DNA from: a phage
Strand: one strand, 5' to 3'
DNA: 64,000 nt
Assembly (NCBI GenBank): GCA_012813795.1
Contig: GCA_012813795.1_4087.1
In this document: in pieces, positions 45,504-60,270 of the stretch
Numbering within the stretch: the first letter of the stretch is position 1
Layout of the letters: every line of letters starts with the position of its first letter
The notes under the pieces: generated by a model
What the model was told of the DNA's origin: nothing
Seen by the model: the letters and a program-made list of their open reading frames with translations, nothing else
The model's database searches: none
Made by a program: the position numbers and the translations under genes

Positions 45504-45516
45504 TTTAGTTTATCCT

Positions 45517-45543: not shown

Positions 45544-45565
45544 GTGTTGTTAGTACTGCAAGTTA

Positions 45566-45970: not shown

Positions 45971-46056
45971 CCTATTAGTTAAGTTAGTACTACAAGTTAG
46001 AGTCTATTATAAAGTACTATCTGGGCAATGTCAAATAGTACTTTAAATGGATTCTA

Positions 46057-46380: not shown

Positions 46381-46468
46381 TTTTATTTCTCTCTCTTTGT
46401 TAGGAGGGGAACCGTTTCCCCTCACTTGATGTAAACTATTATACAGTACTAAGATACTTTGTCAATAC

Positions 46469-46651: not shown

Positions 46652-46739
46652 TTTTATTTCTCTCTCTTTGTTAGGAGGGGAACCGTTTCCCCTCACTTGA
46701 TGTAAACTATTATACAGTACTAAGATACTTTGTCAATAC

Positions 46740-47015
46740 TTAAGTATTGTAAATGTCGTGAATAGTGATAAAGTTTTTACGACCGTAAACCTGTAAATCA
46801 GTATCAATGTAGTGCTTATCAAGTACATCCTCGACGCTTAACGCGGTGTCGTGAATATCTTCGTAGAATTGAGGATCTACAATCTTGCTTAAGTCATCCG
46901 GCGTTAACTTATCGTTAAGCCATTGAACCGCCTGGATATCTGCATCACGTTTCCAGTCTTGCAGGTTAGTAGTAAGTACTTGTTCGATTTCGTTAGCTGT
47001 CAGTAGAATCCGCAT
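46740..47015 (-). CDS. hypothetical protein
   Basis: 91-aa minus ORF. Confidence 0.6.
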   Translation of the reverse strand: MRILLTANEIEQVLTTNLQDWKRDADIQAVQWLNDKLTPDDLSKIVDPQFYEDIHDTALSVEDVLDKHYIDTDLQVYGRKNFITIHDIYNT

Positions 47016-47244
47016 TTTATGTTTCCTTCTCAGTGGTTGATGTAAGTATTATACTCGTTTACTTTCTATTGTCAAACTATTTTATCAGGGGAGTTTTTCG
47101 TGTGCCTTACTCCTGGGCTACTTAACGGGGTTACTTGTTTCATTCCCCGTCCTGATGTAAAACATTATACTTGATTCTAAGTACAATGCAAGTACTTTTT
47201 TATAATAGTTTTCAGTACTAGATAATACGTCCACCAGCATATAA

Positions 47245-47335
47245 TAGATACATTTATGCACCCTGTGGGCTGATTTGTTTCTATGCGTATATAATAGCAA
47301 AGGGACTGACCGGAGTCAATCCCTTTTTCAATTAT
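47245..47335. repeat. conserved inter-gene boundary element, copy 3
   Basis: Same unit as 40861..40950. Confidence 0.6.
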
Positions 47336-47337
47336 TT

Positions 47338-47487
47338 TTAAACTTCTTTTGGGTTGCGATATGTGATAGCGTTAGGGTACATTTTCTTTAAGTTATTCCA
47401 TGCCTGGTTAAGACTATAACCGCTGGATCTTACTAGTTGGTGCATACCTTGCCCCAAAAATGTAACTTCGAATAAGTATTCTTTCAT
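47338..47487 (-). CDS. small protein (49 aa), not in ORF track
   Basis: Hand-translated MKEYLFEVTFLGQGMHQLVRSSGYSLNQAWNNLKKMYPNAITYRNPKEV; GAGGTG SD; ATGA overlap with the upstream gene. Confidence 0.45.
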   Translation of the reverse strand: MKEYLFEVTFLGQGMHQLVRSSGYSLNQAWNNLKKMYPNAITYRNPKEV

Positions 47488-47657
47488 GCTTGCACCTCGC
47501 GATCTGCTTTGCCTTTACGCCAGGCCGTTGCTAATTGTTCGCGTTGCCATACATCCAGCGATACGTAAAGTTTTGCGGTATCACCTTTCGGATATTCGCC
47601 AGTAGTACCCATCCGATAAAACAGATCTTTCAGTACTGTCAATTCTACCTGGATCAT
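47484..47657 (-). CDS. small protein (57 aa), not in ORF track
   Basis: Hand-translated MIQVELTVLKDLFYRMGTTGEYPKGDTAKLYVSLDVWQREQLATAWRKGKADREVQA; AAGGA SD; promoter module upstream. Confidence 0.45.
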   Translation of the reverse strand: MIQVELTVLKDLFYRMGTTGEYPKGDTAKLYVSLDVWQREQLATAWRKGKADREVQA

Positions 47658-47744
47658 GTTACTTTCCTTTTTGTTAGGAGGGGAACTATTCCCCTCTCTA
47701 TGTAAAACATTATACTTGATTCTAAGTACTACACAAGTACTTTT

Positions 47745-47957
47745 TTAATCTTTCAGCCAATGATCTTGGATGAATTTTTCACCGAAGCCTTGCTGCATGG
47801 ATTGTAACAGGCGTTCACGGTGAGCGGCGGCAAATTGCTCAGTACTATGCGTTACACCTGGTTGATATCTGGATTCACCATTGGGGGCGATGTATTGTAC
47901 ATCCCACGGTTTAGCGTTAGTATCAGACCATTTACGAACGATTAGTTGACCTTGCAT
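47745..47957 (-). CDS. hypothetical protein
   Basis: Track ORF trimmed to internal Met (MQGQLIVRKWSD). Confidence 0.55.
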   Translation of the reverse strand: MQGQLIVRKWSDTNAKPWDVQYIAPNGESRYQPGVTHSTEQFAAAHRERLLQSMQQGFGEKFIQDHWLKD

Positions 47958-48043
47958 TTTTCTTTCCTCAGTACTGGGGAGAATCATTTCTCCCCTTCAT
48001 GTAACTTATTATACAGTACTATAATCTATTGTCCAGTACTTTT

Positions 48044-48232
48044 TTAAAGTTTATGAATTAATTCTTTATCTAAACGATAGCGTACATTATTAATTGTAAC
48101 AGCATTGTTTTTAATGCTACGCTGTACAGGTCCACCAGCAATAACAAACGTTGCCTTATTACCCCGAACAATGATAGCACTTCCTGGATTGCCGTATTCA
48201 TCTTGTACTAAAATACTTGATAATTGTTCCAT
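48044..48232 (-). CDS. hypothetical protein
   Basis: 62-aa minus ORF with promoter module (TTGACA-N16-TATAAT) upstream. Confidence 0.55.
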   Translation of the reverse strand: MEQLSSILVQDEYGNPGSAIIVRGNKATFVIAGGPVQRSIKNNAVTINNVRYRLDKELIHKL

Positions 48233-48393
48233 TTTGTTTTCCTCAGTACTGGGAAGGGTTATCCTCCCCTTGATATAAAATATTATACACTATCTATCAG
48301 TACTGTCAATACTTTTTAGTACTTATTTAAACGCTCTCAAACGCATTCTAACGAGCTAATCTATTTTGTAGTACTATCGGATAGGTATATACT

Positions 48394-48422
48394 AAAAAGC
48401 CCACCAGCGTTAACCAGTGGGC
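48394..48422 (-). terminator. rho-independent terminator
   Basis: GCCCAC..GTGGGC hairpin followed on the minus strand by UUUUUAGU. Confidence 0.55.
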
Positions 48423-48428
48423 TATAAT

Positions 48429-48572
48429 CTTACATCTTGCGGATAATCTTAACAGTATCTTTCACCGATTTACCGTCTTGCTGGCATTGTTCGATCATTG
48501 CGTATTGTTCTGTGGTCAGATCTTCGCCAGTTTTTTCCAGTACTGCTTCGATGAATGAATCCAGTGCGATCA
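48429..48572 (-). CDS. small protein (47 aa), not in ORF track
   Basis: Hand-translated MIALDSFIEAVLEKTGEDLTTEQYAMIEQCQQDGKSVKDTVKIIRKM; promoter TTGACT-N16-TATAAT upstream, terminator downstream. Confidence 0.45.
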
Positions 48573-48663
48573 TTTTCTTTCTCTCTTAGGTTAAGTTAAC
48601 TACTGTTTATAAAACTTATTATACAGTACTATCGTATAGAGTCAATAGTACTGGTAATATATT

Positions 48664-48843
48664 TTAGCGGTAGTCGTCGTATGCTTTATTCAACTGGCGA
48701 ATGTAACTTTCAAAGGCTTCGTCTACCGTTTCATACTCCAGAACATAATCACCATAGGAAACTACATACATACCTTTTTGATCTTCAAACGTCATGATGA
48801 TAGAATCCAGACCAACGATTTCAGTTTTTGCGATGATAGCCAT
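48664..48843 (-). CDS. hypothetical protein
   Basis: Track ORF trimmed to MAIIAKTEIVG...; extension translates a promoter module repeated four times in the window. Confidence 0.55.
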   Translation of the reverse strand: MAIIAKTEIVGLDSIIMTFEDQKGMYVVSYGDYVLEYETVDEAFESYIRQLNKAYDDYR

Positions 48844-48925
48844 TTTTAATTCCTTAGTAGTGTAGTTGATAAAATCTATTATGCCAGTACTATCAATCTT
48901 TGTCAATAGTACTGTGATAATATTT

Positions 48926-49138
48926 TTAGTTAATGATAGTCAGTGTAAAATTGTAATCCCCTGCCTGGTATAGTATTTTGTCGCCGAACGTACCAACACG
49001 TTTCATATTGCAATAGATACCCATAACATTTTTTACATCTTTGATATTCCGAACGCCTGTGATATCCTTGTTGAAATTTTCATGATCAGAAAATAAAACT
49101 TGTTTTGCATTTTTCAGTACAGTGCAGATATTAGCCAT
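48926..49138 (-). CDS. hypothetical protein
   Basis: Track ORF trimmed to internal Met (MANICTVLKNAKQ). Confidence 0.55.
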   Translation of the reverse strand: MANICTVLKNAKQVLFSDHENFNKDITGVRNIKDVKNVMGIYCNMKRVGTFGDKILYQAGDYNFTLTIIN

Positions 49139-49217
49139 TTTGTTTTCCTTAGTTGTCTTGATAAAATCTATTATGCCAGTACTATCAATCATTGTCAATA
49201 GTACTGTGATAATAATT

Positions 49218-49577
49218 TTAATCCTGTAAACCGTTCGGGAAGAAATCGAGGCGATCATCGTCGTTCTCGCGTTCGGCGTAAGCACTTTCTAACGCCTCGC
49301 CAGTGTGATCATCAGTTAGATAATCATCCTCATAGTTCACATCCACACCAGTGATGAAAAACTGGCTATCGTCTGGATCATTGAAATTAATTTTCTGAAT
49401 GTTTACAATAACTGTATTGATTCCCAGGACACCGCCATCAGCCGTTACAAAGTACTGATAGTTTTCACATCCACCACTATTGAAACCGTAATTGATTTCG
49501 GCCCGACCATCATTTAAACGCAGTGCCTGGGCGATGATTTCGTTTTCAAAGTTAGATTGAGCAATTGAGATAGTCAT
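49218..49577 (-). CDS. hypothetical protein
   Basis: Track ORF trimmed to MTISIAQSNF... Confidence 0.6.
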   Translation of the reverse strand: MTISIAQSNFENEIIAQALRLNDGRAEINYGFNSGGCENYQYFVTADGGVLGINTVIVNIQKINFNDPDDSQFFITGVDVNYEDDYLTDDHTGEALESAYAERENDDDRLDFFPNGLQD

Positions 49578-49699
49578 GATTCGTTTCCTTATTACCAGGG
49601 GAAACCGTTTCCCCTCTCGATGTAAAACATTATACGCCAATTGAGATAGTTTGCAAGTACTTTTTAAAAATAGTTTTCAGTACTCAATACTTATATAAT

Positions 49700-49800
49700 A
49701 GATACACTTATGCACCCGGTGGGCTAGTGAGCTATCTCTCAATGAATATATAATAGCAAAATGGCTGACCGAAGTCAACCACTTTTTTCATTTATTTTTT
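49700..49800. repeat. conserved inter-gene boundary element, copy 4
   Basis: Same unit; the hairpin here shows compensatory substitutions (TGGCTGAC..GTCAACCA) relative to copies 1-3, consistent with selection for the structure. Confidence 0.6.
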
Positions 49801-49926
49801 AGCTTTTAGAATCGCCGCCTTTCGCGTCATGCCTTGCTTGATGTACTCCTTTACTTTCGCTTTACGTGCTTTCGCTTTATCTGCTTTCGTTTTAGGAGTA
49901 CTGTAAATTAAACCGTTAGGATTCAT
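49792..49926 (-). CDS. small Lys-rich basic protein (44 aa), not in ORF track
   Basis: Hand-translated MNPNGLIYSTPKTKADKAKARKAKVKEYIKQGMTRKAAILKAKK; TAAATG junction with the upstream small gene. Confidence 0.4.
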   Translation of the reverse strand: MNPNGLIYSTPKTKADKAKARKAKVKEYIKQGMTRKAAILKAKK

Positions 49927-50016
49927 TTAAATCACCATAAAGAATAGATATGTTACTAACAATACCGCGATCAATGCACCGCCCAGGGCCGAACTGTAAT
50001 AAGCTAATGATTTCAT
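49927..50016 (-). CDS. small hydrophobic peptide (29 aa), not in ORF track
   Basis: Hand-translated MKSLAYYSSALGGALIAVLLVTYLFFMVI, a single predicted TM helix; ATGA overlap with the upstream gene. Confidence 0.35.
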   Translation of the reverse strand: MKSLAYYSSALGGALIAVLLVTYLFFMVI

Positions 50017-50165
50017 TTTTTAGCCTGAAAATAATGTTTAATTTGAGCGGCGGTCAGTGCACAATTACGCAGGAAGTTTTCTGTATAACTGCGGCGAGTA
50101 CTGAAAGAAAATTGACCTTTGCCGTTGCCGATAGTAACATCAAACCGAGCATTATATTGTTTCAT
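50013..50165 (-). CDS. small protein (50 aa), not in ORF track
   Basis: Hand-translated MKQYNARFDVTIGNGKGQFSFSTRRSYTENFLRNCALTAAQIKHYFQAKK; AAGGAGA SD; promoter module upstream. Confidence 0.45.
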   Translation of the reverse strand: MKQYNARFDVTIGNGKGQFSFSTRRSYTENFLRNCALTAAQIKHYFQAKK

Positions 50166-50247
50166 TTTGATTCTCCTTGTATCAGGGGAGAACCATTTCC
50201 CCCCTCTATGTAAAACATTATACAGTACTAAAAACTAATTGCAAGTA

Positions 50248-50394
50248 TTATTTTTTAGATTTACGCAAACTTTCTACCATCTCAGGAGTAAGGCCCGGCG
50301 GGTAGGAAACCACTTCATCAACGAAACGTAAAGGGAATACCCCAGCGAAAGGTGAACATGCTTTCTTGGTATTACTCTTTTTTGATGCTTTCAT
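50248..50394 (-). CDS. small protein (48 aa), not in ORF track
   Basis: Hand-translated codon by codon: MKASKKSNTKKACSPFAGVFPLRFVDEVVSYPPGLTPEMVESLRKSKK; AAGGA SD. Confidence 0.45.
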   Translation of the reverse strand: MKASKKSNTKKACSPFAGVFPLRFVDEVVSYPPGLTPEMVESLRKSKK

Positions 50395-50476
50395 TTCATA
50401 TTCCTTAATTAGTGGGGAGAACCATTTCTCCCCTCTATGTAAAACATTATACAGTACTGAAAACTAATTGCAAGTA

Positions 50477-50719
50477 TTATTTTAAACTTTGTGCGACTAA
50501 TTTCGCACGGTCAATCATATACTGCCATTTTTGGATCTCTTCTGGTAGAAAACGATATTCACCAATAACAATAGTGATACACTTTTCAGCCTGGTCAATG
50601 TATGTAGTATCAATCTCGACTTGAACGGGTACACGTTCGCCGTATTCAGTTCCTGGGATAATACAATCATTATCATAAGTAACAGTAGTTGCAGTGTCTT
50701 TGATTAAAATGGTTTCCAT
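50477..50719 (-). CDS. hypothetical protein
   Basis: Track ORF trimmed to METILIKDTA... Confidence 0.6.
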   Translation of the reverse strand: METILIKDTATTVTYDNDCIIPGTEYGERVPVQVEIDTTYIDQAEKCITIVIGEYRFLPEEIQKWQYMIDRAKLVAQSLK

Positions 50720-50771
50720 TATACTTTCCTCGTTAGGTGTAAGGGGAAAAAGTTTCCCCTCTATGTAAAAC

Positions 50772-50799
50772 ATTATACAGTACTGAAAACTAATTGCAA
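50772..50799 (-). promoter_or_regulatory. sigma70-like early promoter (module copy)
   Basis: Minus strand TTGCAA-N16-TATAAT, then GGGGAAAC..TTTCCCC hairpin, then GAGGAA SD. Confidence 0.6.
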
Positions 50800-50999
50800 G
50801 TATTATTTTCTAAAAAATGATTGTATGCTGCATCAACCACTCTTTCGATAACATACGCCATCGGCACGTATCCAACTACATGACTACAATAGAAAGGACT
50901 ACGATTAGAATCATCGTATGCAAATACTTTTTCAGGATCTGCATCAATCACATACATATTAACTTTGAGTATGTCAATCTTATCCTGTACAGTAAGCAT
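50790..50999 (-). CDS. hypothetical protein
   Basis: 69-aa minus ORF. Confidence 0.55.
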   Translation of the reverse strand: MLTVQDKIDILKVNMYVIDADPEKVFAYDDSNRSPFYCSHVVGYVPMAYVIERVVDAAYNHFLENNTCN

Positions 51000-51004
51000 A
51001 TTAA

Positions 51005-51259
51005 TTAACCTTTTAAGTACTGGCTCAAATAGTCTTTTTGTTCTTCGGTGATTGGCGGCATCTTCCCTAGTACTGGATTGATGATATAATCCCCTGTAAC
51101 GTCATGATCCGCGTTCTCAGTACTAGCAACCGGACGAATACGGGCCATCGCCTGGGCTTGTTCTACGCTGTATTGTTCGTATAGTCTGCATTCTTCCGGT
51201 GTAGGCATTACATCGCTACGCTGCATAGGTTTAATGATGCTTTCTTGATTAACGTTCAT
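51005..51259 (-). CDS. hypothetical protein
   Basis: 84-aa minus ORF. Confidence 0.55.
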   Translation of the reverse strand: MNVNQESIIKPMQRSDVMPTPEECRLYEQYSVEQAQAMARIRPVASTENADHDVTGDYIINPVLGKMPPITEEQKDYLSQYLKG

Positions 51260-51310
51260 GGTATTATCCTCAATATTAGCGGCCTAAATCGACCGCTAAC
51301 GATGTTTTGA

Positions 51311-51580
51311 TTAATAGGTGTATGGTTGACGCTCAAACAATGATTGCACGTTGTACGCCCCGCTAATGGGCTTCGCTGGCAAATCAATTTTATATTGCTC
51401 ACGCTTAAAGATGATAAAACGACAATTGTTCTTAATATCAAAATTGATTGAACGTTCCAGGAGTTTTCCATCGTGCACAAATACAAGATAACCGCTTGCT
51501 ACTTGTTTTGTAGTACTGGTTGCAACCATCGACCGACGAACATGCGTACCTGCATCGATTAAAGTACTGATATTTTTCAT
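51311..51580 (-). CDS. hypothetical protein
   Basis: 89 aa; preferred over overlapping 51256..51486 because of AAGAGGA SD. Confidence 0.55.
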   Translation of the reverse strand: MKNISTLIDAGTHVRRSMVATSTTKQVASGYLVFVHDGKLLERSINFDIKNNCRFIIFKREQYKIDLPAKPISGAYNVQSLFERQPYTY

Positions 51581-51660
51581 TTTACTATCCTCTTAATTTG
51601 ATTTAATTTCTTTCCCCTATGCAGACACTATATCAAAGTATCTGCATAAAGTAAAGCTAA

Positions 51661-51984
51661 TTAAAGATCTTTTTTGCGTTTAACATTCTGTACAGTACAA
51701 TGCAACGGGATAGACAAATCATTACACAAACGATAGAGGGAGGTTTCAACAGTATCAAGCCCGTCTACTGATTCCTTTAAGAGATCTAACGCCGTTTGTT
51801 GATATGCATCTTCATAGCCATAAGTAAATGATTCAACCGCCAGATCATTCACACCGTTATCCAGTTCAACGCTTACATGACAAGAATGATAAGTATTGCC
51901 ATATGAATCAGTCCAACGTTTACCGTCAACATTGATTGCACGGATTGCAGCCAGGGAAACGGTGTTAATGATAGTTTTAGCCAT
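51661..51984 (-). CDS. hypothetical protein (paralog of 46057..46380)
   Basis: 107 aa. Confidence 0.6.
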   Translation of the reverse strand: MAKTIINTVSLAAIRAINVDGKRWTDSYGNTYHSCHVSVELDNGVNDLAVESFTYGYEDAYQQTALDLLKESVDGLDTVETSLYRLCNDLSIPLHCTVQNVKRKKDL

Positions 51985-52075
51985 TTTAGTATTCCTTAAA
52001 TTAATATGCGTTGTCTTGATAAAATCTATTATGCCAGTACTATCAAACTATGTCAATAGTACTGTGATAATATTT

Positions 52076-52288
52076 TTACTTACTTTCTTTAGCTGCTTTA
52101 TGTGCTTCCACTGCCATAACCACATCAGCACGAACAAAGTTAGCAACCGTATCAGTGTAATATTTGATTGCATCGTCAACTTCTGCGAACGTCCGATACA
52201 TACCACACCAAGATACTTTATAACCTGCTTTCACTTGTTCCAGCTTAACCAGTGATTTGTTTACTTTGATTTTAGTAATGATAGCCAT
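52076..52288 (-). CDS. hypothetical protein
   Basis: 70-aa minus ORF. Confidence 0.55.
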   Translation of the reverse strand: MAIITKIKVNKSLVKLEQVKAGYKVSWCGMYRTFAEVDDAIKYYTDTVANFVRADVVMAVEAHKAAKESK

Positions 52289-52370
52289 TTTTTGTTTCCT
52301 CTTAGTTGTCTTGATAAAATCTATTATGCCAGTACTATCAAACTATGTCAATAGTACTGTGATAATATTT

Positions 52371-52514
52371 TTACTTACTTTTTGCTTTCTTTGATGCTTC
52401 AACCTGGTCAGCCCACTCTTTACCCCATACTTGAGCATTATAGTGATACTGACAAAGAGCAACGCCCCGCTTTAAACCAGTAATAGATTTTTTACCACAT
52501 TGACAAGTTTTCAT
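52371..52514 (-). CDS. small Cys-containing protein (47 aa), not in ORF track
   Basis: Hand-translated MKTCQCGKKSITGLKRGVALCQYHYNAQVWGKEWADQVEASKKAKSK; GAGGAA SD; promoter module upstream. Confidence 0.45.
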   Translation of the reverse strand: MKTCQCGKKSITGLKRGVALCQYHYNAQVWGKEWADQVEASKKAKSK

Positions 52515-52600
52515 TTTTCGTTTCCTCTTAGTGGGGAGAATCATTTCTCCCCTTGATGTAATGTATTATACTTTATCCGATTTACTTTGCAAGTACTTTT

Positions 52601-52828
52601 TTAATTTAATTCATCTAGGCAAAGGATACGATCTACACCTAAATCAGTTAAGCTAATAGACGGCACTTGATAGGTTTCAATGTATGCTACATCGGCCCAC
52701 TGACCGAACTCACCTGCCGCCCAGTTATACATTGCAAAATGTAATTCCGCACCTTTCTTATTAGTAATTACAGCAACAGTAGAAGAATTGCCAGTAGTAC
52801 CAGTTACGCGAGTGATTACGATAGCCAT
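52601..52828 (-). CDS. hypothetical protein
   Basis: 75-aa minus ORF. Confidence 0.55.
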   Translation of the reverse strand: MAIVITRVTGTTGNSSTVAVITNKKGAELHFAMYNWAAGEFGQWADVAYIETYQVPSISLTDLGVDRILCLDELN

Positions 52829-52898
52829 TGTTTTGATTCCTATTCAGTAGTTGATGTATGTATTATGTCAGTACTTAAAACTATTGTCAAACTATTTT

Positions 52899-53051
52899 TT
52901 AAAGTTTATCAATGATTGATGCCGTTTCATTGATAGTCTTGCCGTGTTTTGCACACGCGATAACTGCTTTAAATTCCTTTGATGACCAATCTTTTTTCCT
53001 GCATACTGACATTACTTGTAAAGTGAAACAATCCAGTTCATAAGTATTCAT
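52899..53051 (-). CDS. small protein (50 aa), not in ORF track
   Basis: Hand-translated MNTYELDCFTLQVMSVCRKKDWSSKEFKAVIACAKHGKTINETASIIDKL; GAGGA SD; promoter TTGCAC-N16-TATAAT. Confidence 0.45.
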   Translation of the reverse strand: MNTYELDCFTLQVMSVCRKKDWSSKEFKAVIACAKHGKTINETASIIDKL

Positions 53052-53220
53052 CTTTATATCCTCAGTTAGTTAAGGTGTCTCGCCTTGATGTAATTAATTA
53101 TACGCTAATCTCTTAATCGTGCAAGTACTTTTTATTAGTTTTTATAAAATACTTTTAACGCTCTCAATCGCATTCTAACGGCCTTAACGCCACCAGCTAG
53201 GGCGATGTATCACATAAACG

Positions 53221-53254
53221 AAAAAAGCCCGTAGAATTGATTCTACGAGCTTTT
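53221..53254. terminator. bidirectional rho-independent terminator
   Basis: GCCCGTAGA..TCTACGAGC hairpin flanked by A6 and T4; 3' of the lipoprotein gene. Confidence 0.55.
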
Positions 53255-53270
53255 AAGCTGGTTGATTGTA

Positions 53271-53678
53271 TTACTTACAGTTATAGACTATGATCCCGAC
53301 CGTCCCGTGTCCAATGACTTCAACGTTATACACTAACTTGCCATTTACACGCTCGCGAGCATAAAAAACGCGTTCATTCTCGGCATCGCGATACGCTGAT
53401 AAAAATTTACGGTTTGGATACGCTTTCAGTACTGGCGACTCAGTGAAAAAGTCACCGATAACTACACTAAAATGATCCCCGTGTTCTGTTAATGGTATAC
53501 TACGCGGATCAGTAAATTGCGGACGGTTATCAATAACAAAATATGGATTCACTGTACAAATCTTATCGCCCATCTCTGAATAAGTTGGCTTAGGATCATT
53601 AGCCTGGATGGATGATTTAGGGGCCGTACATCCCACCGCCAACAGTACACAACTAATAACCGCAATTTTTTTAAACAT
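53271..53678 (-). CDS. lipoprotein (candidate superinfection-exclusion or receptor-blocking factor)
   Basis: 135 aa; signal peptide MFKKIAVISCVLLAVG|C with lipobox LLAVGC. Confidence 0.65.
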   Translation of the reverse strand: MFKKIAVISCVLLAVGCTAPKSSIQANDPKPTYSEMGDKICTVNPYFVIDNRPQFTDPRSIPLTEHGDHFSVVIGDFFTESPVLKAYPNRKFLSAYRDAENERVFYARERVNGKLVYNVEVIGHGTVGIIVYNCK

Positions 53679-53742
53679 AATGTTTACTCCTATAAAATTG
53701 TATTTAAAAGAAAATCCCCTAGCAATCAGGGGATTCGTTTGA

Positions 53743-54225
53743 TTATGCTACATCTTTACGGTGAGCTTCGATCCATTCCTCGCGAGTCATACCGCTGGCG
53801 TTAATCGCGTCCAGTACTACGGCAATGCAGTTACCGCGTACTGGTACAGTGTATTCCTCGCCATTATCCAGTACTACCGTGACACGTTCTTGAATCCATT
53901 TTTTAGCTTTTACTTCTGGCTTGTCTTCCCCGTATTTCGCTGCCAGGGCTTTACGGGCCATTTCGGTAACTACTTCCAGATCAAGCCCAGCGACGGCGGC
54001 GTTAATATCTTCAATCGTTTTCTGCAATTCTGCTTCGCGTGCTGCCTTCTCTGCTTCAATTGCCGCCGCTTTATTAGCTTGCAGTTCTTTCGCTTCGCTG
54101 TACGCAATGTTAAAATTGTTGCGTACTGCTTTCATGGTATCGCTATCCAGTTCAGCCAGGATCTCTGCCGCTACATTAGTTTCATTTGCTACCAGTGCTT
54201 TGATGAATGATTTTACGTTAGCCAT
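53743..54225 (-). CDS. hypothetical Ala/Glu-rich coiled-coil protein
   Basis: Track ORF begins at a TTG; ATG at 54225 (MANVKSFIKAL...) has GAGGAA SD; central AAAIEAEKAAREAELQK heptad-like region. Confidence 0.6.
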   Translation of the reverse strand: MANVKSFIKALVANETNVAAEILAELDSDTMKAVRNNFNIAYSEAKELQANKAAAIEAEKAAREAELQKTIEDINAAVAGLDLEVVTEMARKALAAKYGEDKPEVKAKKWIQERVTVVLDNGEEYTVPVRGNCIAVVLDAINASGMTREEWIEAHRKDVA

Positions 54226-54424
54226 TATGTAATTCCTCAATTAAAGTTTAGTTTACGTTAGATAGTGTATCAAAGTTTTCTCGACGTGTCCAGTTTTTCG
54301 TTCGACTTACTGGCGGTCTACTTAGTGCTCCCCGTCTTGATGTAATACATTCTACGCCTTTTTGTGGTAATGTCAACTACTTTTTTAAAACTATTTTCAA
54401 AGTATTCCAGTACTACGATACTAC

Positions 54425-54451
54425 AAAAACAAAAAAGCCCACCAGGTGGGC
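54425..54451 (-). terminator. rho-independent terminator
   Basis: GCCCACC-a-GGTGGGC hairpin followed on the minus strand by UUUUUUGUUUUUG; 3' of 54459..54689. Confidence 0.65.
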
Positions 54452-54458
54452 TATGTAC

Positions 54459-54689
54459 TTAATCAGTAAGTAAAATATTAAACACTTTGCCATTTAACGT
54501 TATTGGTGTACTGCTACCAGGCTTGAGATCAGTTAGTACACCTGCAATAGCTTTTTCATTGGCGACCTTTCCAGTGTCCAATAGTACTACAGTACTGATA
54601 AGATTAACGCTCGTTTCAATATCATAATGCACGGCGTTAAGGAGTTGTGTAGTACTTCCAGCGTTAAGTAAAACTATTCGCTTAGTCAT
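54459..54689 (-). CDS. hypothetical protein
   Basis: 76-aa minus ORF. Confidence 0.55.
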   Translation of the reverse strand: MTKRIVLLNAGSTTQLLNAVHYDIETSVNLISTVVLLDTGKVANEKAIAGVLTDLKPGSSTPITLNGKVFNILLTD

Positions 54690-54767
54690 GGTATTACCCC
54701 TTATACCAGGGGAACCGTTCCCCCTATGTAAAACATTATACGCGTTTAAAAACTATTGTATAGTACT

Positions 54768-55004
54768 TTATGATTTTTTATAAAACATTTCAGCAGTGAT
54801 ATTTTTACCCGTTGGTTGTACTTTATCCAGAATTTTTTGATGTCCAGGGCGACCAAATGAATAAGATCCGTAAACCGTAAACCAGTAGTTACCCTCAGTG
54901 TTTACATGTACAGCACAATAGGGAACGCCCCGCGATTCATCACTAGTAAAGTGTGCTACCGTTCCCGTTACATTCGAAGACGTTGATTTGATTTGTTCGA
55001 CCAT
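54768..55004 (-). CDS. hypothetical protein (paralog of 56154..56387)
   Basis: 78 aa; shares GVPYCAVHVNT.G.YW.TVYG.YSF.RP.H.KIL with 56154..56387. Confidence 0.6.
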   Translation of the reverse strand: MVEQIKSTSSNVTGTVAHFTSDESRGVPYCAVHVNTEGNYWFTVYGSYSFGRPGHQKILDKVQPTGKNITAEMFYKKS

Positions 55005-55112
55005 TTTCTTATTCCTTAGTTACCAGGGGAACCGCTCCCCCTATGCAAAACATTATACGCGTTTAAAAACTAATAGCAAGTATTTTAATAAAAAGTATTT
55101 GGAAAATAATTG

Positions 55113-55255
55113 TTGACAAGTGCATCCAGTACTGGCATAATTACTACATCAAGACGAAACAGTCACTAACCCACCGGGTGCCGAGATCCGTCTATTAAAT
55201 GATTCAGTACTGAAAAAGTAACGGGGAGTTATTATCTCCCCGCGTTGTTATTTTG
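55113..55255 (+). ncRNA. candidate plus-strand small RNA (box-containing)
   Basis: Only plus-strand unit with promoter-like TTGACA-N17-CATAAT (55113-55141); no ORF; contains conserved CCCACCGGGTGC box; ends at GGGGAG..CTCCCC hairpin (55223-55241). Confidence 0.35.
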
Positions 55256-55469
55256 TAAGGTATAAACAGAAGTCACCTTTATTTGCTACGCCGCCAGTGT
55301 AACGCGATGAATAGTTAGTAACGTCCTGGACTTCTGCTATTACCAGTGTATCATCATTCAATTCGTCGCAGAAGCAAACGGCTGGATCTTTTACGCCGAT
55401 ATTGTCGGCATGTTCCCGCATAGATTTAACCAGTGCTTCAAGTTGGGAAAGGGTAGTAATGTTAGCCAT
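55248..55469 (-). CDS. hypothetical protein
   Basis: Track ORF trimmed to MANITTLSQLE... Confidence 0.55.
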   Translation of the reverse strand: MANITTLSQLEALVKSMREHADNIGVKDPAVCFCDELNDDTLVIAEVQDVTNYSSRYTGGVANKGDFCLYLTK

Positions 55470-55555
55470 TGTATTTTCCTCATTACCAGGGAGAACCATT
55501 TCTCCCCTTGATGTAAACTATTATACAGTACTAAAAACTAATTGCAAGTACTTTT

Positions 55556-55759
55556 TTAATTTAATTGCTTTAACACATAATCATAAACACCACGCACATC
55601 ATTGATCATCGCCTCACGGTTAGCAGGTAACGCAGAAGGATCGCCACTATCCCAGGCATTGATAAAACTCCCCAAATCATGATAGATTTTATTTTGTAAG
55701 CCGATCAACTGTAATTCTTTTTCTTCAAGCTCTTTGATACGGTCGATTAAATCACTCAT
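55556..55759 (-). CDS. hypothetical protein
   Basis: 67 aa; SD GAGGATTATCTA shared with the upstream gene. Confidence 0.55.
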   Translation of the reverse strand: MSDLIDRIKELEEKELQLIGLQNKIYHDLGSFINAWDSGDPSALPANREAMINDVRGVYDYVLKQLN

Positions 55760-55776
55760 TAGATAATCCTCAGTAC

Positions 55777-56064
55777 TTAATTGTAAGATCCGCAGCGGTT
55801 GCAGTAGTTCCCGTCTTCCTCGTCATCGTCAACGAATTGACCGACGAAATGATCTACTTTCTCTTTGAGGCTTTTATAATCCTCTTCTACTTCCTTTAAA
55901 CGTTTCTGGTAGTATTCCAGGGCTTGCACATACGCCGCCTCAGCAGTTTTCTCCCGCATAGCTAAATTCATGCCGCGTGTTTCATCATAAAGCCAATAAC
56001 CATCGGTGCACTGGCTGATAGAAAATGATTTGGTTAACACTTTATAGTCAATTACTTTGCTCAT
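55777..56064 (-). CDS. hypothetical protein with C-terminal Cys pair
   Basis: 95 aa; acidic stretch then ...YCNRCGSYN. Confidence 0.55.
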   Translation of the reverse strand: MSKVIDYKVLTKSFSISQCTDGYWLYDETRGMNLAMREKTAEAAYVQALEYYQKRLKEVEEDYKSLKEKVDHFVGQFVDDDEEDGNYCNRCGSYN

Positions 56065-56153
56065 TAGATAATCCTCTGTAAATGCAGGGGAACCATTTCC
56101 CCCGCCTCGATATAAAGTATTATACTCGTTTAAACTTAGTATGCAAGTACTTT

Positions 56154-56387
56154 TTAGTGCTTAGTAAAATATTTTTCTGCGGTGATATCCTTTCCGGTAG
56201 GCTTCACTACTTCCAGGATCTTACTATGTGCCGGACGAGCAAACGAATACCCCCCGTATACAGTTAACCAATAGTCACCGTCAGTGTTTACGTGTACAGC
56301 ACAATAGGGTACACCTTTATCAGTATCAGCGATGGAATGTACTTTCGTTCCGGTCCGGCTTGTAGTCGTTTGAATTTGTTCGATCAT
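56154..56387 (-). CDS. hypothetical protein (paralog of 54768..55004)
   Basis: 77-aa minus ORF. Confidence 0.6.
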   Translation of the reverse strand: MIEQIQTTTSRTGTKVHSIADTDKGVPYCAVHVNTDGDYWLTVYGGYSFARPAHSKILEVVKPTGKDITAEKYFTKH

Positions 56388-56444
56388 GATGCTTACTCCT
56401 GGTTATAGGCGGGAACCACTCCCGCCATTGATTCAGTACTGAAA

Positions 56445-56675
56445 TTACATTCCAACCATTGCCGCACGAATTGCAGTAGTGCTATACTTAAAGCCGTCCG
56501 GCGTTGACTGACCGCGTAAAGTATCCATCATTAGCCGGGCGGCGGCATCGCGGTTATTTGTCTCATTGATGCAATCCAGGGCGTGACGATACAACCAGCT
56601 ATCATTGTTAATCCAAAGGCTTACATTCCAATGAGTTTTGTTTTTGTGACCTAAGAACATTTTTGATTTAGCCAT
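56445..56675 (-). CDS. hypothetical protein (paralog of 57230..57469)
   Basis: 76 aa; shares GHKNKT.WNVSLWINND..LYR and PDGFKYSTTAIRAAMVGM with 57230..57469. Confidence 0.6.
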   Translation of the reverse strand: MAKSKMFLGHKNKTHWNVSLWINNDSWLYRHALDCINETNNRDAAARLMMDTLRGQSTPDGFKYSTTAIRAAMVGM

Positions 56676-56880
56676 TTTGAAAATCCTCGTTTGATTTGAG
56701 CGGGGAACTATTCCCCGTCCTGATGTAAAACATTATACGCCTTTAAACATAGTTTGCAAGTACTTTTTAAAAATAGTTTTAATCACTTTCCTATAGATAC
56801 ACTCCCGCACCCTATGGGCTATCGCCTTGTATCCGGCTTGTAAGTATTATCTCACTAAGCCGGATAATGGTCAAGTACTT

Positions 56881-57147
56881 TTATTCAAGTACTGCAATCT
56901 TTTTAGTACGGTACACAGTAACACGGTTGCCCTTGCGGTCGTGCTTTATTTCTACCACTCGACGCGATACACTATCAGGACTTTTTAACGCCGATAACCA
57001 GTACTGTAACGATCTGGCGGTGCTACGCTTTACAATGACCCAACGTTCACCCCTGGCTGATTGTACGCCCATATCTTTAAACGTTGCACCGTCAACCTTT
57101 GCCGCTTGCCGAGCTTGTTCACGCGTTTCAAAGTATATAATATTCAT
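56881..57147 (-). CDS. hypothetical protein (paralog of 45566..45970)
   Basis: Track ORF trimmed to MNIIYFETREQARQ... Confidence 0.6.
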   Translation of the reverse strand: MNIIYFETREQARQAAKVDGATFKDMGVQSARGERWVIVKRSTARSLQYWLSALKSPDSVSRRVVEIKHDRKGNRVTVYRTKKIAVLE

Positions 57148-57229
57148 GCTGATACCCCATCGTTGATGTATGAATAAAATCCTATTATAAAGTACTATCA
57201 CCGTGCAATAGTACTTTAAATCTATTCTC

Positions 57230-57469
57230 TTACATTCCAACCATCGCGGCACGGATCGCCGTAGTGCTATACTTGAATCCGTCTGGAGTTTTATCTTGTC
57301 CAGTTTGCTCTAAAAATAGCATCATATGACGGGCCGCATCATTACGATTAGTATTAGCGTCGATAAATTCTTTCGCCAGACGATACAATGACTCATCGTT
57401 ATTAATCCAAAGGCTTACATTCCACTGAGTTTTGTTTTTGTGACCGTTGAAAGTTTTAGTAGTAGCCAT
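57230..57469 (-). CDS. hypothetical protein (paralog of 56445..56675)
   Basis: 79-aa minus ORF. Confidence 0.6.
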   Translation of the reverse strand: MATTKTFNGHKNKTQWNVSLWINNDESLYRLAKEFIDANTNRNDAARHMMLFLEQTGQDKTPDGFKYSTTAIRAAMVGM

Positions 57470-57554
57470 AATTAAAAATCCTCTTAATTATAGTGGGGAA
57501 CTATTCCCCACCTGATAGAAAGTATTATACGCCTTTAAACTTAGTTTGCAAGTA

Positions 57555-57788
57555 CTATTTTTTCAGTACTGGTAAACCTTTGATCTCACCTGGCTGTACT
57601 TCCTCAAAGGTCGCCGCCATCATACGGCTATCATCTTCCTTGCACTCTTCCATTGCATCACAAAAATGATTAATAACGTCCGGTGCAACGTCAACCACAT
57701 CAAACAAGCCAACCTCAGTGCAACGGCTTAAAGCGTTTAACAGGTCAGTCAGTGCAACGGATTGAGAAACAGTTAAGATAGTACTCAT
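57555..57788 (-). CDS. hypothetical protein
   Basis: 77-aa minus ORF. Confidence 0.55.
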   Translation of the reverse strand: MSTILTVSQSVALTDLLNALSRCTEVGLFDVVDVAPDVINHFCDAMEECKEDDSRMMAATFEEVQPGEIKGLPVLKK

Positions 57789-57882
57789 AAAATTAATCTC
57801 TTAATTATAGTGGGGAACTATTCCCCACCTGATAGAAAGTATTATACGCCTTTAAACTTAGTATGCAAGTACTTTTTAAAAC

Positions 57883-58245
57883 TTATTCGTAAATCTTGCC
57901 ACTGTCAGCCCATACCAGGAAACGCGGCATATTATCCCATGCATCTTGTTTCAAGTTTAAGCCGTGCAATACTTCTGTACTTTCCATCCCTGGTACTGGT
58001 TTACTATACACCGCAAACATTTCGCCCATGTACTGATACGCCATCGTTAAATCACTGGCGATCATCTTATGGATCATCGCATCAAGCATCACAGTAGCGG
58101 CGTATTGTTCACGCTTAAGCGGCAACATTGCAATCAATTCCCGATAAGCTGAAATATGAATCTTTACAGTCTCAGCCGGAAGATCTTTCATCTCTTCGCG
58201 AAAGTTAACCAGGTTAGCAATGATTTTAGTGATTTGAGTCGCCAT
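57883..58245 (-). CDS. hypothetical protein
   Basis: 120-aa minus ORF; last gene before the non-coding hub. Confidence 0.6.
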   Translation of the reverse strand: MATQITKIIANLVNFREEMKDLPAETVKIHISAYRELIAMLPLKREQYAATVMLDAMIHKMIASDLTMAYQYMGEMFAVYSKPVPGMESTEVLHGLNLKQDAWDNMPRFLVWADSGKIYE

Positions 58246-58564
58246 CGTTTTAATTCCTATTAAAGTGAGTTAGGAGCGTTTCCCCCGTCTCGATGTAAAA
58301 CATTATACGCCGTTAAACATAGTATGCAAATACTTTCTGCAAATACTTTTAAAATAGTTTTCTTTCTATATAGGAGTACTATCATTCAGTACTGAATCAA
58401 TCCAGGGAGTACAATTATTCAGTACTATACCCTCAAAACGTCCTCAGTCGCTTTCTAACGCATTAATACACCTAAGCTATACATTTGCACCACTCCCAAC
58501 AATCCAGGGCTTTACGGGCCGTTTAAACGCGTTAAATTATTTTCAATTATTTTGTTTTTAGCTA

Positions 58565-58592
58565 TTGACTCAGTACAGAAAAAGCGTATAAT
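58565..58592 (+). promoter_or_regulatory. plus-strand sigma70-like promoter in the non-coding hub
   Basis: TTGACT-N16-TATAAT; downstream non-coding sequence carries the conserved CCCCAGGGGGTGC box. Confidence 0.45.
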
Positions 58593-58779
58593 TACTACAT
58601 AGACGCGAGAAAGCGGATACCCCAGGGGGTGCGGAACTACGCCCAAAATTCAGTAAATTTAAAAAGGATACACTCCCGCACCCTAGCAGGTCAAAGCACT
58701 TTCTCAGTACTGAATCATAGTACCATAGTACGCCCCATGATAGCAAGCAAATTAATTAAAACTTTTTGCATCCAGGGTA

Positions 58780-58807
58780 TTGCTTTATTTTTCCAGTACT
58801 GTATAAT
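58780..58807 (+). promoter_or_regulatory. plus-strand sigma70-like promoter in the non-coding hub
   Basis: TTGCTT-N16-TATAAT; downstream non-coding sequence carries the CCCAACGGGTGC box. Confidence 0.4.
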
Positions 58808-58904
58808 AGTTCCATCAAGTCGAGAAAGACTCAAGCCCAACGGGTGCATAGTTACGCCCAAAATTCAGTACTAGATTATTTTTTAAAAATATTCATCCAG
58901 GCGG

Positions 58905-58933
58905 TTGACATTGCCCCCAGTTTATTAGATAAT
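58905..58933 (+). promoter_or_regulatory. plus-strand sigma70-like promoter in the non-coding hub
   Basis: TTGACA-N17-GATAAT, followed by GGGGAAACCATCCCC hairpin. Confidence 0.45.
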
Positions 58934-59030
58934 GATTCCAGATTCAGAAAAATCTAACTCCAGATACTGCGGGGAAACCATCCCCACGCGGTAGGGGAAC
59001 TAATGGAAAAAACAGTATAAAATTTTGATT

Positions 59031-59170
59031 TAGCCGTCTATACATCCAGACGTTTAGCCGTCCAAACGTCTAGCGGTACAGCCATCTAGCAGTACAGCCA
59101 TCTAGCCACCTAGAGGGATAGCCATCTTTACTTCCAGACTTCTGGAGGGCTAGACATCTCTACGTCCAAA
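59031..59170. repeat. iteron-like cluster (candidate origin, packaging or partition site)
   Basis: Reiterated ~11-bp units TAGCCGTCTA / TAGCCGTCCA / CAGCCATCTAGC x2 / TAGCCACCTAG / TAGCCATCTT / GGCTAGACATCTC plus palindrome CCAGACTTCTGG. Confidence 0.55.
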
Positions 59171-60000
59171 ATCCACACAGGGTTACTACGCCCAAAATCC
59201 GTCAGTACTATACCATAGATCTATCTTTGAGAAGGGAGTATTCAGTACTGCCATCATAGTCCTCACTATGTTACCCTAGGAGGATGAAGACTATCATGTA
59301 GTACTGAATACTTTTAAGGGGAATATCATCACATTGCGTGATGCATTATATATTAGATTAATATCAGTACTGCTACCATTCTGTTAATAACAGTACTGTT
59401 TATATTACGAAAAAAAGAGGTTGTCAAAGATGAACCACTACATAGGAGGATTCAATCTCTTCTGTACTGTCTCACGACAGGGGGAATAAGGCTCTGAATT
59501 GTTTGCGGCAATCCATCACTCTATGTAGAACATTATACAGTACTGAATCATAATGTCAATAACTTTCTTACATTTGCAGTACTAAAATCGTATCTTCTGT
59601 ATCTCTTCAAAACTCATTATATCCCAATAATCCTATATGTCCCAACGTGAATTCCAACTTTCGAAGATCCAACTTTTATTTCATAGGTACTCCAAAATTT
59701 TTACGATCCAGATTTACGATGGAGTACTAACCAACTTTTTGCTGGAGCCTCAAGGGGTATTCGGAATTTTCCCCAATGGGTAATCGGGATTTTTGACGAA
59801 GGGTAAATTGAACTTTTTTGAATAGGTGATTGGGAGTTTTCAGTACTGGTCATTCCGTGATTACTTTTGATTACATTTGACATGTTATGCAAAGTTGCAG
59901 TACGGTAAAAATATGTAAATTTTGGGCGACTTCATTTGCCTACTTAGTGGGATATCAGTACTGAATCATATAGGGGTAATCCTTCAGTACTGAATACTTT

Positions 60001-60120
60001 CCTGTACTCTAGTACACTCTATTACACTCTAGTACTCAATACTAATCACTACTAACCACTACAATGATTATAAATGATTACTTAAATGTTTATATATGAT
60101 TACTTATGACTACCTATGAT
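60001..60120. repeat. short direct-repeat cluster
   Basis: TACACTCT x2, TAATCACTAC/TAACCACTAC, ATGATTAC x4. Confidence 0.5.
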
Positions 60121-60163
60121 TACGGGGTTTAGCCTGGGGAGAATCCTAGTGATCGCATTTGTC

Positions 60164-60228
60164 CAGGCTGAATTTTAACAATTCAGACGTCGAGCAGGCT
60201 GAATTTTAACATATGCAACATATGTTAA
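60164..60228. repeat. 17-bp direct repeat plus 10-bp inverted repeat
   Basis: CAGGCTGAATTTTAACA x2 (60164-60180, 60194-60210) and TTAACATATG-caa-CATATGTTAA (60206-60228). Confidence 0.6.
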
Positions 60229-60270
60229 AGCCTGTATAATGCTTACACTACGGAGCTTCCCCTAGCTATA

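Follow-up and report, generated by a model that had tools for sequence, protein, structure and literature searches.

Introduction

The left terminal repeat of phage T5 has at its inner end Repeat Region 3, a 1.2-kb untranslated and highly conserved region of repeats and palindromes. It overruns the repeat boundary by 270 bp, and is thought to hold the cis-acting signal at which DNA injection stops, with DnaA boxes as the proposed anchor (bioRxiv 10.1101/866236). Here we describe a gene-free region, the hub (58246-60270), in a 64-kb stretch of phage DNA (contig GCA_012813795.1_4087.1; this whole stretch is referred to as the window). Our analysis suggests that the hub is probably a control region at the inner edge of a direct terminal repeat of about 20 kb, where a genome end, promoters in both directions, RNAs and an array resembling operators of the host repressor MetJ are found together.

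The genome ends and concatemer junction of phage T7 reportedly have short repeats arrayed next to the terminal repeat, as well as the promoters phiOL and phiOR, which have no open reading frame (ORF) behind them. Clusters of operator sites can lower the amount of free regulator while encoding nothing, as at the E. coli datA locus (DnaA) and in the Fur titration assay. To our knowledge, there is no phage example of such titration. The MetJ operators of the E. coli met regulon contain two to five tandem 8-bp metboxes with the consensus AGACGTCT (PMC3228920).

Comparison of the hub with these systems suggests that T5 Repeat Region 3 is its closest analogue. Like the T5 region, the hub is long, conserved, untranslated, rich in repeats and palindromes, and located at the inner end of a terminal repeat, the small early genes of which all read toward the left genome end and would be transcribed by host RNA polymerase. 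The overrun beyond the boundary is similar (about 270 bp in T5, 326 bp here, and 265-302 bp in the related phages G17 and fEgEco12). Both regions contain clusters of sites resembling those of host DNA-binding proteins, and the T5-like phages PR1 and Pontus share a metbox-like array. However, the hub has no sequence homology to T5, and lacks paired DnaA boxes in inverted repeats, a LexA box and Fur boxes. It is also longer (2.0 kb versus 1.2 kb), and its promoter-RNA units are not known from the T5 region. Two-step DNA injection is known for T5, whereas the hub is likened to it by sequence features. We do not place the hub in the T5 family, because DnaA boxes and sequence homology are lacking, but it may work like the T5 region.

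The likeness to T7 lies in the short tandem repeats beside a defined repeat boundary, in gene-less promoters pointing at a genome end, and in the metbox-like array that the T7-like phage PGT2 carries near its end. Unlike the present case, T7 has a repeat of 160 bp instead of about 20 kb, promoters for its own RNA polymerase instead of the sigma-70 type, and heptamer repeats that are not metbox-like. The array in the hub also resembles datA and the Fur titration sites in being a non-coding cluster of operator-like sites on DNA, and by this analogy we propose that it may act by titration.

Phage identity and coding capacity of the hub

Comparison of the hub (58260-60270) with phage records gave 42 matches at 83-94% identity, nearly all of them to Asteriusvirus (121Q, PBECO4, G17 and relatives), a group of jumbo coliphages with genomes of about 350 kb. 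Identity to Asteriusvirus genomes ranged over 84-94%, and the nearest record was Escherichia phage A4 (93.9%). Judged by its sequence, the source of the window is an Asteriusvirus, a 121Q/PBECO4/G17-like jumbo coliphage. The hub is unannotated in most of the matching records, and a few automated annotations put short hypothetical proteins there.

The original prediction, made by inspection of the window, described a long ORF-free stretch between a block of early genes and an array of small genes. Both points were borne out: 58246-59700 comprises 1455 nt without an ATG-initiated ORF of at least 50 aa (the runner-up in the window is 468 nt), and the hub has minus-strand early genes on one side and a minus-strand small-gene array on the other. 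All but one of the small ORFs in the hub contain frameshifts or stops in several of 12 aligned relatives, and the lone intact ORF is uninformative because its block is nearly invariant. A PHROG search with five hub ORFs gave no match, and no convincing candidate was found among hub ORFs down to 20 aa. The genes on both flanks matched PHROG (2e-59 and 2e-12), the left one being intact in 12/12 relatives. A tRNA and tmRNA scan gave no hits, and a search of Rfam 15, at the gathering score and at a permissive E-value, gave nothing credible (top E-value 0.59, to a plant microRNA model). Conservation over the 12 genomes was at least 90% at 58435-59300, on par with the flanking coding sequence; variable stretches within the genus were 59310-59460, 59760-59930 and 59960-60080. 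The features discussed below are collected in Table 1.

Predicted genome end within the hub

The genes at the two ends of the G17 genome (370,817 bp) are the same, and end-to-end comparison gave a repeat of 20,668 bp. The right boundary of this repeat (20,668) falls within the G17 hub (19,041-20,933), 265 bp before the first gene of the small-gene array. The G17 termini were derived from read coverage (PMC6563267). A repeat of 20,993 bp in fEgEco12 was determined with PhageTerm and confirmed with restriction digests (PMC13070987). The fEgEco12 record, deposited in the opposite orientation, begins at the same nucleotide as the G17 right boundary; its other boundary also coincides with that of G17, and the junction sequences are identical at both ends. 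The right junction reads ...GACTTC(N6)CTACT|TAGTGG, which in the window corresponds to 59944|59945. In six repeat-resolved Asteriusvirus records, the repeat cluster lies 747-757 nt from the record start.

The sequence preceding the end is shared more widely. Ends fall exactly 11 nt after GACTTY in G17 and fEgEco12 (Asteriusvirus), pEa_SNUABM_12 and Serratia BF (Eneladusvirus), XbC2 (Mimasvirus), and Muenster (Alcyoneusvirus, with a repeat annotated from PhageTerm), so that this GACTTY-N11 rule covers six records in four genera. With an end at 59944|59945, both ends of the genome would carry the left 1.7 kb of the hub, and the right 326 bp would be unique DNA. The block inside the repeat at 59660-59750, which can also be written GGTACTCCAAAATTT...GATGGAGTACT...GCTGGAG, is recognisable at Eneladusvirus, Mimasvirus and Alcyoneusvirus ends. 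Together with GACTTC-N11 and the block at 60085-60160, it may constitute the determinants of terminase recognition and cleavage on the concatemer.

A packaging site was among the functions raised in the original prediction, which named an absence of termini from this region as the observation that would count against it. The homology supports a packaging site: in the relatives with mapped termini, the right boundaries of G17 and fEgEco12 are one and the same nucleotide inside the hub.

The left end of the repeat was placed by alignment at 39453|39454 (GAGCTA|AGCAATTACCCGCCCC), a weaker assignment than that of the right end. It is a homology-based guess, because the region has diverged and contains an extra ORF of 140 aa, and an exact search of the window for the left-junction sequence of G17 did not find it. 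This minus-strand ORF (38950-39372) lies just outside the predicted left boundary, and nothing in the G17 junction region aligns with it. In G17 (record 350149|350150) and fEgEco12, GCGACTTC also occurs at the left repeat boundary, on the opposite strand and 2-4 nt outside the cut. It is missing from the left boundary in the window, and its relation to the GACTTC-N11 rule of the right end is unexplained.

Promoters and predicted structured RNA units

The promoter type of 58302-58330 recurs ahead of each early gene. Three plus-strand promoters had been proposed for the hub, of which P1 and P3 were confirmed, but P2, with its TTGCTT -35 element, fails the scanner rule. The best promoter of the hub, on the minus strand at 59559-59532, had been missed. 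Outside Asteriusvirus, P1 is kept in four genera and P3 in five. P1 and P3 both recur in Eneladusvirus, Mimasvirus, Alcyoneusvirus and the SE_PL group, and P1 also in Hallingskeid; the individual phages that keep P1 are pEa_SNUABM_12, XbC2, SE_PL, Muenster and Hallingskeid. Good -35 and -10 elements are kept amid unrelated spacers, which argues that P1 and P3 are real plus-strand promoters. The conserved promoters on both strands, together with the structured leaders described below, support the regulatory role that had been suggested for the region. We consider it very probable that the right genome end lies in the hub and that the hub serves as an early promoter region working in both directions.

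Each plus-strand promoter precedes a predicted RNA unit. The promoter-proximal 52 nt of unit 1 (58585-58636) is 92-94% identical in distant genera and is the most widely conserved piece of the hub, among phages that have less than 30% genome identity (PMC13070987, Table 2). Its 5' stem-loop, CGC-GAGAAA-GCG, becomes CGA/UCG in pEa_SNUABM_12, and the stem of its paralogue, unit 2, is GUC-GAGAAA-GAC. A long-range helix in unit 1 (GGGUGCGG/CCGCACCC) has one compensatory change, in XbC2, and overall structure support for the unit is modest. An IMG/VR pattern scan for unit 1 returned 121Q and Serratia BF only.

The leader hairpin of P3 is wholly different in sequence between genera and keeps its pairing, with compensatory changes in 9 of the 15 pairs. 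In the alignment, which comprises just five sequences, 86.7% of its cells were paired, compared with 37-59% when the partners were slid, and none of 500 shuffles reached its covariation score. Further copies of the ACTACGCCCAAAAT motif that closes each plus-strand unit occur at 58636, 58851 and 59159, and behind the arrays of pEa_SNUABM_12 and SE_PL; the role of the motif is unexplained. It is rather likely, on these alignments and folds, that the plus-strand units make structured non-coding RNAs.

Two other structures were considered. AGGGTGCGGGAGTGTATCCT (58665-58684) was rejected as a minus-strand terminator: it is not conserved as such in other genera, and a plus-strand RNA helix is therefore preferred. 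A local hairpin in unit 1, GGGUGCG...CGCCC, holds only within the genus and was set aside.

AGTACT occurs 258 times in the 64 kb (e.g. 40247-63965), compared with about 20 expected from a rough estimate based on base composition. It sits in coding sequence and at two fixed places in early promoters (AGTACTTGCA at -35, and CAGTACTG abutting -10), and the hubs of Muenster, SE_PL, pEa_SNUABM_12 and XbC2 are rich in it as well. The longer palindrome TCAGTACTGAAT occurs four times in the window, always within the hub. Early transcripts open with a G/C hairpin, GGGGA-N-TCCCC, a few bases after the -10 element (57812-57826, 58274-58290 and other early genes), and this 5' structure is common to many small early genes. 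Just upstream of the promoter of the first early gene, 58350-58430 contains the repeat unit ...CTATCTTTCTATATAGGAGTACWATYATTCAGTACT..., the copy number of which differs among Asteriusviruses.

Array of MetJ operator-like boxes

The repeats at 59031-59170 had been described as iteron-like. They are real repeats, but form a contiguous array with an 8-bp period and not a set of spaced iterons. In frame from 59032, the boxes begin AGCCGTCT ATACATCC AGACGTTT AGCCGTCC AAACGTCT and continue to a total of 17. The boxes were scored with the published MetJ half-box matrix (PMC3228920, Table 3), in which the consensus scores 12.58 bits. A MetJ site was defined as two or more adjacent boxes that each reach a quarter of the consensus score and jointly reach at least 12.58 bits, the full consensus score.

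The first five boxes (59032-59071) scored 9.5, 6.3, 10.7, 7.2 and 10.7 bits, summing to 44.5, and this is the sole run in the 64 kb that qualifies as a MetJ site by the published definition. The single-box threshold was passed by 11 of the 17 boxes. The in-frame sum over the 17 boxes was +91 bits, compared with a maximum of -53 in 100 Markov nulls, and the best five-box null was 22.0 bits. In relatives, the contiguous boxes number 15 in fEgEco12 (108.7 bits), 14 in SP27 and 12 in G17.

Scored in the same way, the metJ/metB and metF operators of E. coli, with four boxes each, gave 31.2 and 24.9 bits. The array resembles such operators in its contiguous 8-bp boxes, which pass the single-box and whole-site thresholds, and in its per-box scores of 6-11 bits, equal to those of the metJ/metB and metF operators. 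Unlike the operators, which have at most five boxes, it has 17 (up to 15 contiguous strong boxes in relatives); C is more frequent at position 3, and the array is not at a met gene promoter. It lies about 90 nt downstream of the predicted P3 start, with no met gene nearby and no overlap with a met-gene promoter. We give binding of the array by MetJ an even chance. No literature linking MetJ, Fur or LexA boxes to the repeats of T5 or jumbo phages was found, in a search of incomplete coverage that is weak evidence of novelty.

Occurrence of similar arrays in other phages

To find similar arrays, BLAST searches were made with the window array and with the array of Providencia phage PR1. Matches were found in jumbo phages of Eneladusvirus and Mimasvirus, in T5-like phages of Vibrio, Providencia and Aeromonas, in T7-like phages of E. 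coli and Klebsiella (PGT2, PSK2, NNA-G4), and in Pseudoalteromonas phage PH1. Many are annotated as lying within terminal repeats. In PR1, nine near-consensus boxes (88.5 bits) lie about 770 nt inside the boundary of the repeat, and two DnaA boxes and a CTGT-N8-ACAG box come after them; T5-like Pontus has 15 boxes (111.7 bits), and the array of PGT2 lies 40-104 nt from the genome end. Array-bearing records were on hosts of the Enterobacterales, Vibrionales, Aeromonadales or Alteromonadales in 61/62 and 48/49 cases, the single exception being XbC2. MetJ is confined to these four orders and the Pasteurellales (PMC3228920), and this agreement is indirect evidence that MetJ may bind the array. Because the terminases of the array-bearing phages are unrelated, the simplest explanation is an array read by a protein that their hosts share.

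The architecture of the hub is also kept in Muenster, SE_PL and Hallingskeid, all of which have P1 and unit 1; Muenster and SE_PL keep P3, its leader hairpin and the AATGGAAAAA box as well. Fur-box-like sequences occupy the slot of the array in all three. Sites with at least 14/19 matches to GATAATGATAATCATTATC number seven in Muenster, four in SE_PL and three in Hallingskeid (null means 0.05-0.35). Four such sites fall within the annotated palindromes and DRC repeats of T5 Repeat Region 3 (null mean 0.10), and T5 palindrome D fits the CTGT-N8-ACAG form of the LexA box. The preprint on the T5 injection stop makes no mention of Fur, LexA or MetJ (bioRxiv 10.1101/866236). Fur and LexA sites are absent from the hub of the window.

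Boundary regions of T5-like phages (T5 9330-9640, PR1 and Pontus) combine several types of host-factor site. In PR1 and Pontus, the metbox arrays stand beside TTATCCACA DnaA boxes and CTGT-N8-ACAG boxes.

Proposed mode of action

We propose the following model for the hub. By homology, the packaged genome would end at 59944|59945, 11 nt past the conserved GACTTC, and terminase would recognise and cut the concatemer at the conserved sequences on either side of the cut. Host sigma-70 promoters would fire leftward into the small early genes (58330, 59559), and three others rightward (58565, 58780, 58905) into short structured RNAs without ORFs. The P3 transcript would run into the 17-box array, along which MetJ, with its corepressor S-adenosylmethionine (SAM), might polymerise cooperatively. 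The array could then be a DNA-only decoy that competes with the short chromosomal met operators and derepresses methionine and SAM synthesis. Alternatively, protein bound to the array could form a block at the inner end of the repeat, where DNA entry or transcription would pause, a role that has been put forward for the DnaA boxes of the T5 injection-stop region. The met regulon as a whole contains no more than a few dozen boxes. An incoming genome adds two arrays of about 12-17 boxes each, and long cooperative arrays should compete; for this reason, a decoy would be slightly favoured over a roadblock or entry pause, given that MetJ binds.

Several points weigh against this model. About half of the boxes have C and not A at position 3, compared with only 10% of natural half-boxes, and the array of the window is more degenerate than those of its relatives, with just five of the passing boxes contiguous. 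The array-bearing phage XbC2 is recorded on Xanthomonas, which is without MetJ, although its genus otherwise infects Enterobacterales. The binding of MetJ, the activity of the promoters and the transcripts are all predicted from sequence, and the hub has nine promoter-like sites compared with 10.7 ± 2.9 in shuffles, which is not above chance. The terminus of this phage is placed by homology to relatives, and the left junction is poorly conserved in the window. The two roles of the array are not distinguishable from sequence, the interchange of MetJ and Fur boxes at one slot fits both, and the mechanism of the T5 analogue is itself still a hypothesis (bioRxiv 10.1101/866236).

Alternative explanations

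The array might instead be bound by a phage protein, such as the small terminase subunit or a ribbon-helix-helix protein, as a recognition site for packaging, with its likeness to metboxes a coincidence. Such a reader would account for the constant location of the arrays within terminal repeats, where they lie 40-800 nt from either a physical end or the boundary of the repeat, for the departure from the MetJ consensus through C at box position 3, and for the record of XbC2 on a MetJ-less host. We regard it as unlikely, considering that the array is shared by three phage families that are unrelated and differ in their terminases, follows the taxonomic range of MetJ in its host distribution, has per-box scores that equal or exceed those of genuine operators, and is missing in Muenster, SE_PL and CBB, closer relatives in which the cut-site motif and the architecture of the hub are kept. 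A further possibility is that the hub is mainly a small-RNA locus, in which the unit-1, unit-2 and P3 RNAs act on host or phage targets, and that the repeat boundary lies there because the space is non-coding and free. The start of unit 1 is indeed the most widely conserved piece, and the hairpins covary, but Rfam yields no matching family, and the z-scores of the folds, at -1.6 to -2.6, are modest. The boundary does not lie there incidentally, since both the cut-site motif and the flanking blocks close to the terminus show conservation between genera. This makes the explanation more unlikely still. That the hub is a neutral spacer, or consists of decayed genes with chance motifs, is hardly credible: the promoter-like count equal to chance and the private features (the 31-bp duplication and a 9-mer tandem repeat) fit a spacer, but it is already contradicted by a conservation equal to that of the flanking genes, an architecture kept across five genera, and array statistics far outside the nulls.

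A replication origin was another function raised in the original prediction, and this part was not supported. An origin could use the repeats as iterons for an initiator, or the ORF-less promoters for priming or R-loops, as in T4 oriF/oriG and T7 origins. The ORF-less conserved promoters with structured transcripts, and the T4-like replisome genes of Rak2-like phages (PMC5259590), count in its favour, as does the change in sign of the total GC skew at about 60.5 kb. However, the G17 plus-strand skew at third codon positions (GC3 skew) does not change sign across the hub, being +0.10 for the genes of the repeat, +0.35 for the array of small genes and +0.11 for the plus-strand genes that follow. 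The third codon positions of the small-gene array (60271-63955) are C-rich, with a coding GC3 skew of -0.32 (-0.35 in G17). The flip in GC skew is due to this property of the small-gene family, and not to a strand switch in mutation bias; the GC-skew minimum was rejected as origin evidence following this codon-position analysis. The repeats have a contiguous 8-bp period instead of the helically phased 17-22 bp of iterons, the hub contains no DnaA boxes (TTWTNCACA, both strands), and its GC content (0.36-0.40) is not AT-rich relative to the genome, with no AT-rich unwinding element. No initiator gene is evident beside the hub, where the flanking genes are small proteins of unknown function. An origin is improbable on this evidence, and conceivable only in the transcript-primed sense (T4 oriF/oriG), for which ORF-less promoters are present but no clear unwinding element was found in the hub. 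The single match to the IHF consensus in the hub is at 59018 on the minus strand.

Implications

Terminal repeats of about 20 kb were already known for these jumbo phages, but the contents of their boundary were undescribed until now. New here are a nucleotide-level terminus, placed by homology, a cross-genus cut-site rule (GACTTY-N11), and candidate cis elements for how the 20-kb repeat is generated. The supposed iterons fit the operator of a host repressor; such arrays arose in the terminal repeats of three unrelated phage families, are apparently restricted to hosts with MetJ, and are replaced by Fur-like boxes in related phages and T5.

It is possible, though we find it doubtful, that arrays of host-repressor operators in terminal repeats are a general protein-free device of T5-like, T7-like and Rak2-like phages for host manipulation or DNA entry. 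The boxes used would be those of MetJ in this phage, of Fur in sister genera and in T5, and of DnaA and LexA in T5-like phages. A MetJ-SAM filament would then either titrate MetJ beginning in the first minute of infection or cause the entering DNA to pause at the inner end of the 20-kb repeat; an entry pause would make the Asteriusviruses two-step injectors like T5. If the arrays bind host regulators, the long-unsolved injection-stop region of T5 can be reinterpreted in a testable way, staged DNA entry becomes a possibility for jumbo phages, and phage DNA could reprogram the host before any gene expression.

Other features of the hub and its surroundings

Table 1. Features of the hub and terminal repeat, in window coordinates
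Feature	Position	Strand	Basis or remark
Predicted direct terminal repeat, ~20.49 kb	39454..59944		Mapping from G17 and fEgEco12
Non-coding hub	58246..60270		No conserved ORF; 12-genome alignment; ~1.7 kb inside repeat, 326 bp outside
Sigma-70 promoter TTTGCA-17-TATAAT for first early gene (57883-58245)	58302..58330	-	Promoter scan
P1, TTGACT-16-TATAAT, 11/12	58565..58592	+	Promoter scan; cross-genus retention
Unit-1 non-coding RNA (predicted)	58598..58697	+	Alignment, pair counts, fold
P2, TTGCTT-16-TATAAT, 9/12, weak -35	58780..58807	+	Sequence; TTGACT-17-TATAAT in Muenster
Unit-2 RNA (predicted), unit-1 paralogue (70 nt, 71% identical)	58813..58880	+	Repeat family D4; fold
P3, TTGACA-17-GATAAT, 11/12	58905..58933	+	Promoter scan; kept in other genera
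P3 leader: covarying hairpin, then conserved box CGCGGTAGGGGAACTAATGGAAAAAA	58959..59012	+	Covariation; fold z = -2.6
17 contiguous MetJ-operator-like 8-bp boxes (metboxes)	59032..59167		MetJ matrix scoring
ACTACGCCCAAAAT motif closing each plus-strand unit	59185..59198	+	Repeat family D7
Hairpin CATCAC-attgc-GTGATG	59327..59343		Sequence; relatives compared
Perfect-consensus sigma-70 promoter TTGACA-16-TATAAT, 12/12	59532..59559	-	Leftward, no ORF behind; block 99% conserved
Conserved module GGTACTCCAAAATTT...AGATTTACGATGGAGTACT...GCTGGAG	59660..59750		94-100% in genus; 200-280 nt inside terminus
GACTTC + 11 nt, predicted right virion DNA end 59944|59945	59928..59944	+	GACTTY-N11-end in relatives
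Two TCAGTACTGAAT palindromes	59955..59999		Sequence; just beyond the repeat
10-bp-period direct repeats ACTCTAGTAC, TGATTACNNN	60006..60123		Repeat families D6, D10, D14
Candidate terminase recognition block, outside repeat	60085..60160		98-100% conserved within genus
Private 31-bp duplication	60164..60194		Absent from all 11 relatives
Palindrome TTAACATATG-caa-CATATGTTAA	60206..60228		Fold z = -3.8; partly conserved

The direct repeats noted earlier at 60001-60120 are real, have a 10-bp period and lie outside the terminal repeat. A 17-bp direct repeat (60164/60195) also exists, but is a 31-bp duplication private to this phage, and the 10-bp inverted repeat at 60206-60228 is present but kept in some relatives only. 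This palindrome lies 43 nt downstream of the stop codon of the last small gene. The first small-gene ORF (60271-60513) contains, in frame in its C-terminal part, six to seven copies of a 9-bp tandem repeat, GTACTGATT (60304-60366); the 9-mer array is private to this phage, and the 9-mer is single-copy in 11/11 relatives.

On the plus strand at 59277-59300, TAGGAGGATGAAGACTATCATGTAG comprises a strong Shine-Dalgarno sequence and, behind it, a mini-ORF of five codons (MKTIM*); the block in which it lies shows 95-98% conservation. A Shine-Dalgarno-like copy that resembles it, without an ORF, is found at 59443-59466.

The hub of the window contains no Chi sites. At the place of its CATCAC-attgc-GTGATG hairpin, 10 of 12 Asteriusvirus hubs have CCACCAGC-N4-GCTGGTGG, which is Chi and its complement, about 585-605 nt inside the right end. 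The window and A4 keep the hairpin and have lost the Chi sequence, and the loop is inverted in some relatives (acaa versus ttgt). Eight plus-strand Chi sites (CCACCAGC) occur elsewhere in the window (40819, 41042, 42944, 44865, 47231, 48132, 48401 and 53190), with none in the opposite orientation and 0.23 expected per strand. All eight lie within the terminal repeat, in the orientation that, by the Chi polarity rule, RecBCD should recognise when it enters from the left end of the genome.

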